DNA of 28,689 nucleotides, taken from Promethearchaeota archaeon (GTDB taxonomy: Archaea; Asgardarchaeota; Hermodarchaeia; Hermodarchaeales; Hermodarchaeaceae). A program made the translations under genes and the position numbers. The notes below the pieces were generated by a model. It was not told the origin of the DNA, ran no database searches, and was given only the letters and a program-made list of their open reading frames with translations. Of this stretch, positions 12,472-19,463 are shown piece by piece. Where the stretch lies: NCBI GenBank assembly GCA_048938295.1, contig JBHLMI010000023.1, positions 1 through 28,689 on the forward strand. Reading direction: 5' to 3'. Numbering within the stretch: position 1 is the first letter of the stretch; every line of letters starts with the position of its first letter.

Positions 12472-14025
12472 GTGCCAAAGCGACTAACTATCAATGATAC
12501 CTGGGTCCTCGAAAGGGAAGGATCGTTCAGTACAAACTTTTCCAGCTTTCTCAATAATATCACCGGCGGATTAAAACTGACTGATACTATAAAAGCCGGA
12601 TTAGATGTTGCTCGCACCATGACAGATTTCGGGGACACAGGTTTTGTTAAACCACTACTTGACAAAATATGGGGCACCTTGGGTGTAGATATTAAACCGG
12701 AATTGAGAGAGAAACTCCAGAAAAAGCTTGATCAAAGACAAAAGGAAGCTCAAAGAAAAATCGATGAGGCACAGAAAAAAACTCAAAAAAGGATTGAAGA
12801 AACTGTAGCAACAAAGGAAATCAAGATTAGAGTACTTGAAGATCGAATAGCTCAACATGAAGCCGATTTGGAAGCAATGGAAACGACCGTCGGACAACAA
12901 GTCGCCAGCCAATTGTTCAGCACCAAAATGGACTCCCTGGTAGCAGCTTTGTACTCAGTGGCAAAGGAACGGGGAATCACCAACGAGGAGATTTTAAACA
13001 TCATCAAAGCCCTCCCCGAGTTTGAAGCCCTCCTGTACATCATGAACGTCCGAAAATTCTATCGAGATCACACAGCTCATTCCCTGCGTGTTGCAGCACT
13101 TGGCGATTTTCTCCTAGACAAAGAGGGATTCGCTGGCGGATTAGAAGAGCTAATCAAGGAGAAACTAAACTTTACAAAAGAAGAAGTGAGAACAACCTGG
13201 TGGTTCACTGGGTTGCTTCATGATATTGGAACACCCTTAGCGAAGCTTTTCAGTTCTCTAAACTGGTCAATGATCAATGAAATGACCCGCTGCTATTCAT
13301 CTTTAGGCATGGAATTCTCTCCCCTTGAAATCAATGTGAATCATCCAGAATTAGGGAATACAGATTATCTACAAATCCTCTGTGAAGGCTATCCCCAATC
13401 CTGGCAAAAAATAATCACGAGCGGTCTTGGAGTAACTATACACACTCCTGATACCTTTCGGTATTCAGCACAGAGTAAAAAACACGCTGAATACAAACCA
13501 ACTTCAACCCGAATCGATCACGGCGTTGTTGCTGCAGTTGCTTTACTTCGCACCCTAGGACCACCTGATCAAGTTTCAAAAGACCAGCCAGAAAATCACC
13601 CCCTCATTGAAGCCGCTCGTGTGATTGCCCTGCATGATAACATCGAGAAATTAGGCCCGCTTCGCTTCGAAGAGTATCCCCTCCTCTTTCTCCTTGCGAT
13701 ATGTGATGAATTACAAGAATGGGGTCGTCCAATTCCCGTCTCCTCTGAAGAGGGGTATTTCACAACATCGCTTCAGAAAGTCACCCTTACTGATGCGATT
13801 TTCCACGAGACATCACTCGAGCTATGGGACATCCCCTTCACTAACGCCCAGGCAAAGAGCCTCATGGGGTTTGATTTCGATCGGCTCCATAACGACAAAG
13901 AAACCAAACTTCGGGGACTCGACTGCACCGAACAGTTCCCTGAAACTGACCTGCTGTTAATCGACTATGATAAAGATGCTTCAAAGATTGAAGATAAATA
14001 CGAAATTAAAATCAAGTCCCTATGA
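12472..14025 (+). CDS. HD-superfamily metal-dependent phosphohydrolase with an N-terminal coiled coil
   Basis: DHTAHSLRV, LLHDIG, IDHG, ALHD and ICDELQEWGRP. K/E/Q-rich heptad region at about aa 75-140. Confidence 0.75.
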   Translation: MPKRLTINDTWVLEREGSFSTNFSSFLNNITGGLKLTDTIKAGLDVARTMTDFGDTGFVKPLLDKIWGTLGVDIKPELREKLQKKLDQRQKEAQRKIDEAQKKTQKRIEETVATKEIKIRVLEDRIAQHEADLEAMETTVGQQVASQLFSTKMDSLVAALYSVAKERGITNEEILNIIKALPEFEALLYIMNVRKFYRDHTAHSLRVAALGDFLLDKEGFAGGLEELIKEKLNFTKEEVRTTWWFTGLLHDIGTPLAKLFSSLNWSMINEMTRCYSSLGMEFSPLEINVNHPELGNTDYLQILCEGYPQSWQKIITSGLGVTIHTPDTFRYSAQSKKHAEYKPTSTRIDHGVVAAVALLRTLGPPDQVSKDQPENHPLIEAARVIALHDNIEKLGPLRFEEYPLLFLLAICDELQEWGRPIPVSSEEGYFTTSLQKVTLTDAIFHETSLELWDIPFTNAQAKSLMGFDFDRLHNDKETKLRGLDCTEQFPETDLLLIDYDKDASKIEDKYEIKIKSL

Positions 14026-14595
14026 GGCAAAAGAAGAATAAATGAAAGGGTGCAGCTTCTCCCTTAACTCTGCTAGCCGATTATATATTAACAGACGAGT
14101 CACTTGATCAAAGAGCTCTCCTACATTCTCACCGGACCGGGCTGAAGTCTCAAAGTAGTTATCAAATTCAAGATTAATATGGCGTTGGTAGGCTTCAGCC
14201 ATTGAAATCACTCGCTTCGATGCTAAGTCGACTTTATTTCCAACGAGCACACTCGGAGTCTCATCAGGTACAGCTTGACGGAAAGCTTGCAACCATCCTT
14301 CAACATTATCAAAAGTTTCTGCACGGGTCAAATCGAAGGTGACAATGACGGCATCGCTGCCTAAGAAATAGAGCTTCCGGACACTCTCGAACCGCGGCTG
14401 ACCCGCGAGGTCCCAAATAACCAAGCGAATAAGCACATCGCCAACCACGATTTCTGAGCAGTTGAGTTGAGTACCAATAGACATCTTATAATCGTGATCG
14501 AAGGTCTTGTCAATGAATCGGGTAATGATGCTGGTCTTACCGACCATCGGGTCCCCAATGATTACTAGCTTGAAAGTGTGCTCATTCATTGACAT
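14020..14595 (-). CDS. Rab-like small GTPase
   Basis: G1 GDPMVGKTS, G3 WDLAGQ, G4 NKVD, G5 ETSA. No C-terminal prenylation Cys. Its stop overlaps the convergent HD gene stop. Confidence 0.92.
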   Translation of the reverse strand: MSMNEHTFKLVIIGDPMVGKTSIITRFIDKTFDHDYKMSIGTQLNCSEIVVGDVLIRLVIWDLAGQPRFESVRKLYFLGSDAVIVTFDLTRAETFDNVEGWLQAFRQAVPDETPSVLVGNKVDLASKRVISMAEAYQRHINLEFDNYFETSARSGENVGELFDQVTRLLIYNRLAELREKLHPFIYSSFAS

Positions 14596-14868
14596 GGGGA
14601 GTCGCTCGCTTTTCTCGCCTTGCTTTTTTATTCATTTGGGCTCGAAATTTAAAGGATGTTAATACGAACTACCCAAATCGTGAAGTTCCCTAAATGACTT
14701 TTCCTCGCATTACGTCGGTATTTCGCGCTGGTCTAGCCCGGAAGAAACCAGAATCATACTGGATTCAGATGTAAATAAACGCGCAAAAACGCAAATAGCT
14801 CTTCAAGGGTTTAGGATTGCGAAATATTTAAGCTGAAAAAGTCGTAGTGCCATGCAGGAGCGTCAACA

Positions 14869-16227
14869 GTGACTATACAAATTGATGATGCCGGATGGGG
14901 TGATCCGGTCGGTGGTGTAATCATTGGAGTCTATCGAGTCGAAACTAGCGAATATGTCTCGAAGGAGATCGAAGTCACCCACTTTCAAAGAACGAATTTC
15001 ACGAAAAAGACGTTTCTCGTGCGTGGTCTTGAATTAGTCCTAAAGGCTCTTAACTGCCTACAAGTCTCAAAGGAAGAACCACTTGAAATCTGTCGAGGGG
15101 CAGTTCTTGATGGAGTCCGGGAGGGACTACAAAAAAGAGGCTACGAGGTTATTCCAACCAAAATTGAAGGTCAACTGCAAGAATTGGTTGAAGCCACTTT
15201 TGTGACCTCATTAGAACGACTTGGTCTCAACGATATCCCTAGGGTGAGTGGAAAAGAACGCTTTTTTCGCCAGTTGGAATGGATTCAAGCAGACCTCAAG
15301 CACCGAGAGCATTATGTGAAAACCGGTTGGAAAAACTGGGAAAAGAAGCTCCGGACTTGGCGGCCAAAATGGCGCCAACCTCAACGTCAGAACTTCGACC
15401 CACCAGTTATTATCAAACTGGGTGGGAGTATTATCTCCGATAAATCCAAGCGGTCAACTCCTCGCCTTGACACCATTAAATTGTTAGCTAAAGAGATTTC
15501 AGCAGTGAAATCACATCCAGTGGTGGTCGTGCATGGTGGTGGCTCTTATGGACATTTTCCCGCTAAAGAGTATGAGGTTCATCGGGGGGGACGCACACGG
15601 AAAAAGAAAGTAGGCGTGACTGAAACCGCTCTCGAAATGACAAACTTGGGTTATCTTATTCATAGCGCCTTCCTCGAAATTCAACAACCAGTAATTCCTA
15701 TTCGCTCATCTTCTATCATCGTCACACTCGACGGACGCATCTCTCATATGGACCTTCAAGCCCTGCAAGAATTCTTACGGCAGGGATTCATTCCGATTCT
15801 AGCAGGGGATGTTGCTGCCGATACGGTGAAAGGATTCACCATCATTAGTGGCGATCAAATCTCCATGTATTTAGCTCGGCTATTAGATTCGCAAACGGTC
15901 ATTTTCGCTACTGATGTCGATGGATTATACACCGCGGATCCCAAAGAAGATCCCAAAGCTCGCCGAATTGATCTCATCACACCCGAAACCCTTAATCACG
16001 TATTCGATCAAATTGCTGTGGGAGCTGCACAGAACGCGGCAGATGTAACCGAAGGTATGCGAGGCAAACTCACAGAAATTTTCAAAGGCCTTCCGAAGGG
16101 CTGTGAGGTCATTATCACCGATATTCGTAAACCTGGAACCCTGAATCGAATCTTAACAGGAAAACCTATTCCGGCAACCCGGCTTCGCCACAGTAATACC
16201 TCGCACACTCCTGTCAAACAAAAATAA
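14869..16227 (+). CDS. Fusion of an uncharacterised N-terminal domain (RNase H-like first strand) and a C-terminal isopentenyl phosphate kinase
   Basis: The C-terminal part has IKLGGS, HGGGSYGH (IPK catalytic His), GDVA, ISGDQI, TDVDG and DVTEGMRGK. The N-terminal about 165 aa starts IQIDDAGWGDPVGG. CAGGAG SD upstream of the GTG start. Confidence 0.8.
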   Translation: MTIQIDDAGWGDPVGGVIIGVYRVETSEYVSKEIEVTHFQRTNFTKKTFLVRGLELVLKALNCLQVSKEEPLEICRGAVLDGVREGLQKRGYEVIPTKIEGQLQELVEATFVTSLERLGLNDIPRVSGKERFFRQLEWIQADLKHREHYVKTGWKNWEKKLRTWRPKWRQPQRQNFDPPVIIKLGGSIISDKSKRSTPRLDTIKLLAKEISAVKSHPVVVVHGGGSYGHFPAKEYEVHRGGRTRKKKVGVTETALEMTNLGYLIHSAFLEIQQPVIPIRSSSIIVTLDGRISHMDLQALQEFLRQGFIPILAGDVAADTVKGFTIISGDQISMYLARLLDSQTVIFATDVDGLYTADPKEDPKARRIDLITPETLNHVFDQIAVGAAQNAADVTEGMRGKLTEIFKGLPKGCEVIITDIRKPGTLNRILTGKPIPATRLRHSNTSHTPVKQK

Positions 16228-16272: not shown

Positions 16273-16929
16273 ATGTTTTCATTTACCTACTACGGGTATG
16301 CGGCTATTCTTGTACAATTCGAAAAACACATACTCTTCGATCCTGGTATCATTGATAAGACTCCGCTAGTCGCAGTTAACCAGGTCAAAACCTCATACAT
16401 CATCGTTACACATGAACCCGATGAGCACTTTGGTAATGCGGTCGAGTTTGCCAACCAAAAAGGAAGCATACTCATTGGAAACAGTGATGTTCGTGACCGC
16501 GCACGAAAAGCAGGCATCTATGGGTACGCTTTCACGGAAATAACCATGGACTCACCGCTAGATATCGGGGCAGACATCCAAATCACAGCATACAACGCAC
16601 CACGCGGAGGATTCCTAGCCCCTCAAAATACAGCATACTTAGTTACGAGTAAGCAGGGGTCAGTTTTGCATATGGGTCATCCTAAAGAGGTGGGGATACT
16701 GGAGGGCTTGAAACCGGACCTGTTATGCCTCCCCATTGCTGGTAAAAAACATGGAACCCTATCGCCTGAAGAAGCGGTAAAGGCAACCTCAGCTATCCAT
16801 CCTCGATATGCTTTCCCCATAAGTGGGTCAGGAACCCAAACCCACCAGTTCATGGCTTTACTAGTAGAACAAAATCCAAATGTTACCCCAGTGTCTTTAG
16901 CTCCAGGTCAGTCCTTTACATTGGTCTAA
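16273..16929 (+). CDS. Metallo-beta-lactamase-fold protein (UPF0173/UlaG-like) with a degenerate metal site
   Basis: YYGYAAILV..ILFDPG, THEPDEH in place of HxHxDH, PDLLCLPI, and SPEEAVKA...P. Confidence 0.7.
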   Translation: MFSFTYYGYAAILVQFEKHILFDPGIIDKTPLVAVNQVKTSYIIVTHEPDEHFGNAVEFANQKGSILIGNSDVRDRARKAGIYGYAFTEITMDSPLDIGADIQITAYNAPRGGFLAPQNTAYLVTSKQGSVLHMGHPKEVGILEGLKPDLLCLPIAGKKHGTLSPEEAVKATSAIHPRYAFPISGSGTQTHQFMALLVEQNPNVTPVSLAPGQSFTLV

Positions 16930-17935: not shown

Positions 17936-18901
17936 ATGATGGCTGCTATTTGTAAAATTCAAACAGAGCTAGAGCAGCTTCGCGGCATCAGAGGTGTAGA
18001 AAACTGCTTTCTCGCCCAGCGCGATGGATACCCCATAACTAGCGCTGGCCTTTGGTTGTCTGCGGATGAAATTTTCGGCATTTCAGCTGCTGCATCTGCC
18101 ATCAATGCTGTGGCTCGACGTCTCTACAGCACTCTCAATTATATCCTTGTAGAAGGTGAACAGGTAAAATTCCTCGTGGTTGCCATTCCAGAAAATGATG
18201 AGTTCTTCTTATCGTTAACCACCCGGATCCACGCAAATTTGGGCGTCATCCTCCAGGCCCTTAGCCGCTGTACTCAGAAAATCTCTCCTCATCTTCTCAA
18301 TGCAGGGTCGCTGCCCCCACTCCGACGCTACTCTCAGGACCAGGAAGCATCGATCATGGATCGATTTCAAGCACAGGAAAAACCCATCCATGCACAAAGT
18401 CCTTCACTCCGTTCCCTTGCACTTGTGCTAACGAAATCCATGATGGTAAAGCTTCGAGCGCTCTTAGTGGATTTTACCAATCTCATGGATGGCGCCCATC
18501 CCACTTTCATCTCACTGAACGGTGGTTACCCAATTGCTCCTGAAAATCAGCTTGGGTACTCGACCAGTAGTTTAAGCGCATTCACCTATGCTCTCTATGA
18601 CACTTGCCGAAAGGTCGCCTGGATAACTAAGCGCACCAGCATTAACCAGATCACCATCGACATTGGCTCACACCATCATTTCATCTATAACACTGGAACG
18701 GGGATTTTCAGCACAACTCTGCAGAAAAGCAACTGCCGCCTAGGATATCTTCGACTTCTTATCCCTACTTACACAACACGTATCGAAGAAACCCTGACTG
18801 AAGCGTCGCAGACCTTTGAAAAACCAAAAATACAGCAGCCAATGAACAGATTTCTCAATGGCTTTTTTTCCACTTTTCAACGACAAGCCTTGACAGGTTG
18901 A
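17936..18901 (+). CDS. Tandem roadblock/LC7 (MglB-like) domain protein
   Basis: Two related units with the GYPI motif (FLAQRDGYPI; FISLNGGYPI), each followed by a helix, beta strands and a terminal NLG/RLG helix. Directly upstream of an MglA GTPase. Confidence 0.75.
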   Translation: MMAAICKIQTELEQLRGIRGVENCFLAQRDGYPITSAGLWLSADEIFGISAAASAINAVARRLYSTLNYILVEGEQVKFLVVAIPENDEFFLSLTTRIHANLGVILQALSRCTQKISPHLLNAGSLPPLRRYSQDQEASIMDRFQAQEKPIHAQSPSLRSLALVLTKSMMVKLRALLVDFTNLMDGAHPTFISLNGGYPIAPENQLGYSTSSLSAFTYALYDTCRKVAWITKRTSINQITIDIGSHHHFIYNTGTGIFSTTLQKSNCRLGYLRLLIPTYTTRIEETLTEASQTFEKPKIQQPMNRFLNGFFSTFQRQALTG

Positions 18902-18908
18902 TATCAAG

Positions 18909-19463
18909 TTGTTAATAGACTGGAGTAGTAAAGTTATCCAATCAAAGATTGTTTACTACGGTCCTGCTATGAGCGGGAAAACTACAAGCATTCAAACATT
19001 GTTTAAGAAACTCAACCAATACGAAAAAATCGAATCCATCGAAACCACTACCGGACGAACCCTGTTCTTCGATTTCGGATCCCTTGAATTGACACATAAT
19101 GATTGGACTCTTCGATTGTACATCTGGTCTGCAACTGGGCAAGACTACTATGCCGAAACTCGCTCAACGGTTCTCGCTGGCGCTGATGGCATAGTTTTCG
19201 TCGCAGATATTCAACCACATATACTAGAGGACAATGTTCGCTCCTGGAATGAGTTGAAGAACTTTTATGGCAATCAACTTGGCCGTGAACTTCCTGTAGT
19301 GATCATGCTCAATAAAACAGATCTTCCCAATGTGCTAACTCGTCACCGCATCACTGATGCACTAGATGTGCACAACGGCATCCACGTGTTTCCATCCATC
19401 GCACTCGATGGATACAACGTCACAGAAGCATTCTCAGCGATAATTCAGCAAATATTCCAGTGA
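18909..19463 (+). CDS. mglA: MglA-family small GTPase
   Basis: KIVYYGPAMSGKTT, RTLFFDF, TGQ, GADGIVFVAD and NKTD. Confidence 0.88.
   Translation: MLIDWSSKVIQSKIVYYGPAMSGKTTSIQTLFKKLNQYEKIESIETTTGRTLFFDFGSLELTHNDWTLRLYIWSATGQDYYAETRSTVLAGADGIVFVADIQPHILEDNVRSWNELKNFYGNQLGRELPVVIMLNKTDLPNVLTRHRITDALDVHNGIHVFPSIALDGYNVTEAFSAIIQQIFQ

Follow-up and report, generated by a model that had tools for sequence, protein, structure and literature searches.

The 28,689-nucleotide stretch analysed here (the window; positions 1 to 28,689 of contig JBHLMI010000023.1, assembly GCA_048938295.1, from a Promethearchaeota archaeon of the Hermodarchaeaceae) carries a gene that joins two modules in a single reading frame: an RNase HII-like N-terminal domain (N-domain) and an isopentenyl phosphate kinase (IPK). 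The N-domain belongs to an undescribed archaeal family with a type-2 RNase H fold, whose members stand alone in other Asgard archaea and in Bathyarchaeia. It retains the metal-binding first strand (an Asp-Asp pair and a G-x-G loop) and an F..W..KTGW block, both collinear with RNase HII, but neither DSK nor GSGYP nor the third or fourth catalytic aspartate survives; Cys75, Gln104, Glu108 and Lys151 are conserved instead. The C-terminal module is, by its sequence, a complete IPK and the primary copy of the lineage. We read the product as a bifunctional protein, made up of a normal IPK and an RNase HII-derived module that is independent, probably metal-dependent and directed at nucleic acids, and assign this reading a probability of roughly 55%. 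Literature searches found no description of either the fusion or the N-domain family; what is new here is an unrecorded RNase HII-derived family with an active site that appears, from sequence, to be remodelled, placed in a new architecture with IPK.

The fusion gene and its parts are laid out as follows.

14869..16227, + strand: whole fusion gene, a single uninterrupted open reading frame (ORF) with a GTG start, 452 residues plus stop.
14857..14860, + strand: GGAG, a Shine-Dalgarno-like element 8 nt 5′ of the GTG, read from the sequence and with a putative function.
14869..15351, + strand: RNase HII-like N-domain, residues 1–161, delimited by the AlphaFold2 model and fold matches, without a Pfam or NCBIfam match.
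15352..15405, + strand: Trp/Arg-rich linker, residues 162–179, RTWRPKWRQPQRQNFDPP, with a pLDDT of 59–67 in the full-length model.
15406..16164, + strand: IPK domain, residues 180–432, matched by NF040647 and PF00696.

An in-frame TAG lies eight codons 5′ of the GTG start, and the protein begins (M)TIQIDDAGWGDPVGG, with KTGWKNW at residues 151–157. A preliminary description of this DNA had reported one uninterrupted frame from 14869 to 16227, and there is indeed no stop or frameshift in it. The same description had placed the beginning of the kinase near 15406 with no start codon close by. The NF040647 match does begin at 15406, and the sequence of this locus contains no in-frame ATG, GTG or TTG between residues 150 and 205. 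Since the essential KLGGS motif (residues 183–187) is located upstream of residue 205, the kinase can be produced only as part of the fusion. Five residues of the linker (R162, W164, P166, W168 and R169) are invariant in an alignment of 35 fused proteins, and the stand-alone N-domain homologues have a similar basic tail of Trp, Lys and Arg residues at their C-terminal end.

The N-domain (residues 1–177) has no Pfam or NCBIfam match even at E ≤ 1. Its AlphaFold2 model, calculated on a 72-sequence alignment, is predicted to be very reliable (pLDDT 96, pTM 0.89). Three strands, β1 (residues 3–8), β2 (17–23) and β3 (28–34), are followed by helix αA (48–63), strand β4 (72–75), helix αB (78–89), strand β5 (94–97), helix αC (102–117) and three C-terminal helices. 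This β1-β2-β3-α-β4-α-β5-α order, with an acidic residue on β1, is that of the RNase H-like superfamily, and the five-stranded core combined with a helical C-terminal part is that of the type-2 RNase H fold. In an exhaustive structural comparison of the model with 48,161 chains, ranks 1–7 are all occupied by type-2 RNases H (HII, HIII and H2A; Z 9.3–10.8, 139–162 residues aligned). E. coli RNase HII is the best match (Z 10.8), T. kodakarensis RNase HII the second (Z 10.6, 157 of 177 residues aligned with 21% identity), and RNase HIII, S. aureus RNase HII and human RNase H2A make up ranks 3–7 (Z 9.3–10.0). Integrases appear from rank 8 onward, at Z 8.3 or lower.

The top Foldseek matches are retroviral integrase cores and the IS621 recombinase (E ~1e-4, TM 0.3–0.4), and other fold matches include Argonaute PIWI, Prp8 RH and EndoV. 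The N-domain shares the RNase H-like fold with the cores of retroviral integrases and DDE transposases, and its acidic β1 residue and the Glu on the helix after β5 recall their D..D..E triad, but the TM-scores are low, the Z values fall below those of the RNase HII group, the middle Asp is replaced by Cys and the N-domain has no transposon context.

Motif I of the N-domain aligns profile-to-profile (hhalign) with 14 Asgard RNases HII at an E value of 8.7e-4 and a probability of 23%, with 21 columns aligned confidently. Here IDDsGWG..GG pairs with IDEAGRGP.IGP, and residues IQIDDAGWGDPVGGVIIG with the RNase HII segment IDEAGRGPVIGP. Both the seven best fold matches and this alignment thus bear out the preliminary description, which had likened this part to the first strand of RNase HII. 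A permissive alignment of low confidence also places F..l.WV..R..vKTGWk on T..FL..WI..P.iVRKSW.T of RNase HII; its middle region is untrustworthy, and catalytic equivalents were not assigned from it. RNase_HII is the sole nuclease family named for the N-domain by a language-model search. In a profile search of the PDB, the RNase HII chains 1eke (E 0.49) and 2dfh (E 1.9) rank below several unrelated proteins and the remaining matches are at chance level, and the type-2 RNase H profile PF01351 does not match the N-domain.

Compared with RNase HII (T. kodakarensis 1IO2, PF01351), the N-domain has the same core fold and helical C-terminal part, the same first-strand motif h-D-(D/E)-A-G-x-G-x-x-x-G (IDDAGWG versus IDEAGRG) and a collinear C-terminal F..W...(R/K)-x-(S/G)-W block. 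It is however shorter (~165 residues versus 200–230), lacks the DSK helix insert and the GSGYPxD loop, has Gln104, Glu108 and Lys151 as new invariant residues and, in the fused clade, carries Trp in place of the Arg of the G-R-G loop. The N-domain clearly descends from the type-2 RNase H fold, but it falls outside type-2 RNase H membership.

Conservation of at least 90% across 72 members of the family is found for D6, D7, G11, F39, C75, G77, Q104, E108, G119, W138, K151 and G153. The segments that would make up the active site are listed below.

14875..14928, + strand: motif I, residues 3–20, IQIDDAGWGDPVGGVIIG, comprising strand β1, Asp6/Asp7 and the G-x-G loop; D6, D7 and G11 are at least 90% conserved.
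15091..15093, + strand: Cys75, at the end of strand β4; C75 and G77 are nearly invariant.
15178..15192, + strand: Gln104 to Glu108, on the helix after β5; Q104 and E108 are nearly invariant.
15319..15333, + strand: KTGWK, residues 151–155; K151 is invariant and G153 nearly so (72 sequences).

Canonical Asgard RNases HII (n = 14) keep D4, E5, D37-S-K39, D103, D133 and GSGYPxD. The DSK and GSGYPxD motifs, invariant in these 14 proteins, are absent from the alignments of the N-domain family. Judged by the order of secondary-structure elements in the model, Cys75 probably occupies the place of the third catalytic Asp (D103, of the YVDA motif). Position 100, at the end of β5 and the topological counterpart of the fourth (D133), is a Glu in the fused clade and is variable across the family. 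In a low-confidence profile alignment, KTGWK coincides with (V)RKSW, the end motif of the archaeal RNases HII. This genome, like 25 of 26 relatives, also has a separate gene for canonical RNase HII. The genome's own enzyme (G000:C38:87181-87774; L002:1501-2094) reads VDDAGRGP, and the other aligned Asgard sequences, 13 of 13, have Asp-Glu in this motif.

The N-domain family is large and, so far as its members are named, archaeal. Searched exhaustively with HMMER, 1.84 billion cluster representatives yield 271 clusters at E ≤ 1e-3, nearly all of them 150–280 residues long, with the IPK fusion forming a single cluster in this search. All named members are annotated as 'hypothetical protein' and come from Asgard archaea (Jord/Freyarchaeia, 'Promethearchaeota' and Hodarchaeota) or Bathyarchaeia. 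The N-domain is encoded in 113 of the 301 genomes of the Asgard phylum that were sampled, and in Asgard families other than that of the window its open frame is ~180–250 residues long, i.e. it stands alone. It is also present in 41 of 301 sampled Thermoproteota genomes, always as a short ORF. The stand-alone homologues that the preliminary description suggested do exist, in other Asgard families and in Bathyarchaeia, but the range it gave them, Firmicutes and methanogens, was not seen: the named members are from Asgard archaea and Bathyarchaeia plus one bacterial-labelled bin, and the divergent members are metagenomic only. This bin, labelled Candidatus Krumholzibacteriaceae bacterium (L096/G302), has two copies of the N-domain family (E 7e-65 and 3e-51) and is probably mislabelled or mixed.

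Some members of the family carry C-terminal zinc-ribbon-like tails or TPR repeats. The search for longer N-domain proteins returned IPK fusions only; in the longer family members the extra length comes from an intein, from TPR repeats or from zinc-ribbon-like tails, and no other fusion partner was seen. The intein is found in P0121, a metagenomic stand-alone homologue of 575 residues with a Cys-rich, zinc-ribbon-like C-terminus. It is a LAGLIDADG intein of 354 residues (12–365) with a Ser at the +1 position, and it splits motif I between G11 and S12. With the intein excised, the sequence is that of the family consensus, DDSGWG-SLVGG. Inteins typically occupy essential active-site motifs, often those of nucleic-acid enzymes.

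There are thus several signs that the N-domain is functional. Near-invariant polar residues are predicted to surround the classical metal site. Within the fusion clade the N-domain sequence is conserved to the same degree as that of the kinase and is present in a sole copy per genome, which would be in keeping with a function, and the intein of P0121 is located exactly inside motif I.

The fusion recurs far beyond this contig. A search with the first 177 residues, with matches from NCBI, JGI, ENA and Logan assemblies, identifies 34 protein clusters of 439–498 residues, all of which have the kinase domain and an N-terminal part 66–81% identical to that of the window protein. In the window's own family, Hermodarchaeota, the N-domain is encoded in 16 of 18 genomes, in open frames of ~445–460 residues where the contig allows. 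The N-domain is followed by IPK directly and in frame in all 15 family loci found by tblastn (13 complete and two cut by a contig end), where identities within the fusion clade are 69–82% for the N-domain and 60–83% for the kinase. In the genomes of this clade the fused N-domain is the only N-domain copy. The two family genomes without an N-domain are also without a high-scoring IPK, and the N-domain and the primary IPK would be missing together if one gene had not been assembled. Because the same in-frame join is found across loci and clusters, it is not an assembly artefact of this contig. The fusion, which is found only in Hermodarchaeota, is real and inherited but confined to one lineage.

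The kinase half matches the equivalog model NF040647 with 200.8 bits against a cut-off of 120, with residues 180–432 covering model positions 1–252 of 259 (202.6 bits in a scan of the genome), and the amino-acid kinase family PF00696 at 6.5e-43. Its best solved relatives are the IPKs 8u0k, 7n9d and 3ll9 (E 1e-40 to 3e-37). Two motifs of the domain are placed as follows.

15415..15429, + strand: KLGGS, the nucleotide/phosphate-binding motif, residues 183–187, invariant in 35 fused proteins and aligned to solved IPKs.
15532..15555, + strand: HGGGSYGH, residues 222–229, in which H222-G-G-G-S and G228-H229 are invariant (35 proteins), aligned to HGGGSFGH of solved IPKs.

The kinase half therefore has the sequence features of an IPK, namely membership in the amino-acid-kinase family, the K-x-G-G-S loop and an HGGGSxGH motif that carries the catalytic His. 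It is similar to the solved IPKs (8U0K, 7N9D, 3LL9 and 3K4O) in its full-length NF040647 match, in both motifs and in the amino-acid-kinase fold. Unlike them, it has a 179-residue N-terminal extension, cannot be translated alone and is located outside a mevalonate operon.

The mevalonate cluster of this genome is found on another contig (G000:C9:9765-13191), where genes for MVK, a UbiD-type decarboxylase and an AcnX dehydratase adjoin one another without an IPK. These three proteins mark the archaeal version of the mevalonate pathway, whose end product, isopentenyl phosphate, calls for an IPK. There is one further IPK-like gene in the genome, on a third contig (G000:C50:20622-21374; L004:1324-2286; NF040647 153.7 bits). 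It overlaps an upstream ORF for a 281-residue multi-pass membrane protein (L004:525-1370), which has GDGFADLIGRRFG near its end and no Pfam or NCBIfam match. By analogy with plant VTE5-type kinases, we presume that the second IPK and the membrane protein may form a prenol/prenyl-phosphate salvage pair.

In an IPK tree, which comes from a quick maximum-likelihood search only and has weak deep nodes, the unfused Hermodarchaeota IPKs cluster with 'second' copies from at least four other Asgard families (SH-aLRT 96), and the fused IPKs form a clade of their own (SH-aLRT 100) outside this paralogue clade. Since the unfused copies fall into a separate paralogue clade, the fused gene is, by elimination, the primary IPK of the lineage.

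The earlier statement that archaeal IPKs are single-domain proteins needs a qualifier within the Asgard phylum, as two other Asgard families carry IPK–IDI2 fusions. These are proteins of 636 residues (AA_kinase plus FMN_dh; L186:1480-3390 and L162:373-2283). As in the protein described here, IPK is part of a larger polypeptide. The partner in IPK–IDI2 follows the kinase and is the enzyme for the next pathway step (a type-2 isopentenyl diphosphate isomerase with an FMN_dh fold), with mevalonate kinase encoded directly upstream, whereas in Hermodarchaeota the partner precedes the kinase and no pathway role is known for it. IPK is evidently prone to fusion in the Asgard phylum, and the arrangement in Hermodarchaeota is the unusual one.

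The preliminary description took the fusion as a Rosetta-stone link between the N-domain and isoprenoid or phosphate metabolism. The surroundings of the stand-alone genes do not support this. None of 15 stand-alone Asgard loci has an IPK within 1.5 kb, none of ~90 stand-alone loci in Asgard archaea and Bathyarchaeia has one within 6–8 kb, and in 100 loci there is neither an IPK or other mevalonate gene adjoining the stand-alone members nor any one conserved partner. The only mevalonate-related neighbour is a thiolase, 3–4 kb away in three loci. Stand-alone genes in genomes of the Loki type are accompanied by a divergent CinA-like gene, an unassigned gene for a 240-residue protein, a TPR protein and S30e. 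The neighbours in Jord/Freyarchaeia and a further Asgard family are GAPDH, in divergent orientation, and PGK on the downstream side, and FBP aldolase/phosphatase is also close. Bathyarchaeia have at least four arrangements, which include PGI, the N-domain gene and a SPOUT methyltransferase in this order, S25e followed by the N-domain gene, and YaaH followed by the N-domain gene. Moreover, no packing of the kinase half against the N-domain is predicted: the full-length model has a pTM of 0.60 with a linker pLDDT of ~60, and offers no confident interdomain geometry or interface. The fusion is restricted to one lineage and does not by itself tie the N-domain to isoprenoid metabolism.

A bifunctional protein would work as follows. 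The two-module gene would have a single origin, within the Asgard lineage Hermodarchaeota. The fused IPK, judged by its motifs, would turn isopentenyl phosphate (IP), delivered by the mevalonate pathway encoded elsewhere, into isopentenyl diphosphate (IPP). The N-module may work alone, in a divalent-metal-dependent manner, to bind or cleave phosphodiesters, with a nucleic acid (RNA or an RNA-containing duplex) as its most likely substrate. The basic Trp/Arg tail, which would have become the linker in the fusion, may help to hold this substrate. The fusion would then tether two activities without channelling. It is most likely a lineage-specific event and need not imply shared chemistry.

Several observations weigh against a nucleic-acid-directed enzyme. 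Outside motif I, the sequence similarity between the N-domain and RNase HII is weak (hhalign probability 23%). The four-carboxylate pattern (D-E...D...D) is not found in the N-domain, as the conserved acids in 72 members are only D6, D7 and E108; with three conserved acids and no DEDD tetrad, nuclease activity is not assured. The residues C75, Q104, E108 and K151 are placed around the old active site by the fold topology of the model, so their role as its lining is a predicted one. Finally, the glycolytic neighbours of the stand-alone genes (PGI, GAPDH and PGK) are as frequent as those related to RNA or the ribosome (S25e, S30e and the SPOUT methyltransferase), and such a mixed context does not single out nucleic acids.

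Part of this evidence would also suit a catalytically dead relic of RNase HII that acts as a binding, scaffold or oligomerisation domain, e.g. for RNA, DNA or a protein partner, and does no more in Hermodarchaeota than localise or regulate the kinase. Two of the four type-2 RNase H carboxylates are missing throughout the family, along with DSK and GSGYP, and the classical activity is already covered by the separate canonical RNase HII of this genome and of 25 of its 26 relatives. We nevertheless regard a dead relic as doubtful, given that D6 and D7 are located exactly at the metal site, that C75, Q104, E108 and K151 are near-invariant across ~270 clusters in a polar conservation pattern typical of a catalytic centre rather than a scaffold, and that motif I houses an intein. 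It is unlikely, too, that the N-module acts on a small phosphorylated metabolite, or as a hydrolase with a Cys75/Lys151/acid triad, in a way coupled to the kinase (e.g. on the IP/IPP or prenyl-phosphate pool), which would amount to the Rosetta-stone link of the preliminary description. Its fusion to a small-molecule kinase via a sequence-invariant linker speaks for such an enzyme, as do the conserved Cys and Lys, which are unusual for RNase H-type sites, the sugar-phosphate neighbours in three lineages (PGI in Bathyarchaeia; GAPDH/PGK in Jord/Freyarchaeia and another Asgard family) and the thiolase found 3–4 kb off in three loci. However, the closest fold relatives of the N-domain all act on nucleic acids, the stand-alone loci have no IPK within the 1.5–8 kb covered and fall into at least four synteny types, no confident packing of the two domains is predicted, and the fusion is limited to one family, with other Asgard lineages fusing IPK to IDI2 instead.

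A more specific proposal along these lines, which we consider improbable, is that the N-domain is a new type of enzyme on the RNase HII scaffold, in which Cys75 and Lys151 combine with Asp6/Asp7 or Glu108 into a new thiol or mixed metal/thiol centre, with a phosphorylated small molecule or a lipid precursor as its substrate. If this were true, the fusion would report a genuine coupling to the IP/IPP node of archaeal lipid synthesis. Nothing so far shows an unusual mechanism for the N-domain family. That the fusion itself is an artefact of a lost stop, a frameshift or a chimeric contig is scarcely credible. No point in its support was found, and it is contradicted by the 13 complete and two truncated independent loci, all joined in the same frame without stops, by the 34 protein clusters, by the invariant linker residues and by the absence of the primary IPK from the two family genomes that are without the N-domain. 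The bifunctional protein, with its RNase HII-derived module acting on its own, is the reading we retain.

The other genes of interest around the fusion in the window are listed below.

16273..16929, + strand: metallo-beta-lactamase-fold hydrolase, 46 nt downstream of the fusion gene (PF13483 at 2.6e-10).
14020–14595 (− strand), 17936–18901 (+ strand) and 18909–19463 (+ strand): two Ras/Arf-like small GTPases and a Roadblock/LC7-like protein, which flank the fusion.
12472–14025, + strand: 517-residue protein, whose sole match is to a Cas3-type HD domain, below threshold (22 bits).

The metallo-beta-lactamase-fold gene occupies the same-strand +1 position in seven of nine Hermodarchaeota loci; it is possibly co-transcribed with the fusion and is a candidate operon partner. 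The GTPases and the Roadblock protein are typical 'eukaryotic signature' genes of Asgard archaea. The GTPase gene divergent from the fusion is syntenic in eight of the nine loci, and the gene for the 517-residue protein is kept upstream of it in six.

The N-domain family is widespread, as it is encoded in about one third of the sampled Asgard and one seventh of the sampled Thermoproteota genomes, and it is absent from domain databases. In public annotation the fused proteins are called merely 'isopentenyl phosphate kinase', and proteins with the N-domain alone are listed as 'hypothetical'. As markers for annotating the family, motif I, Cys75, Gln104/Glu108 and KTGWK can be used. The IPK fusions of Asgard archaea, together with their conserved second IPK paralogue, matter for how lipid biosynthesis is reconstructed in those archaea that are most closely related to eukaryotes.

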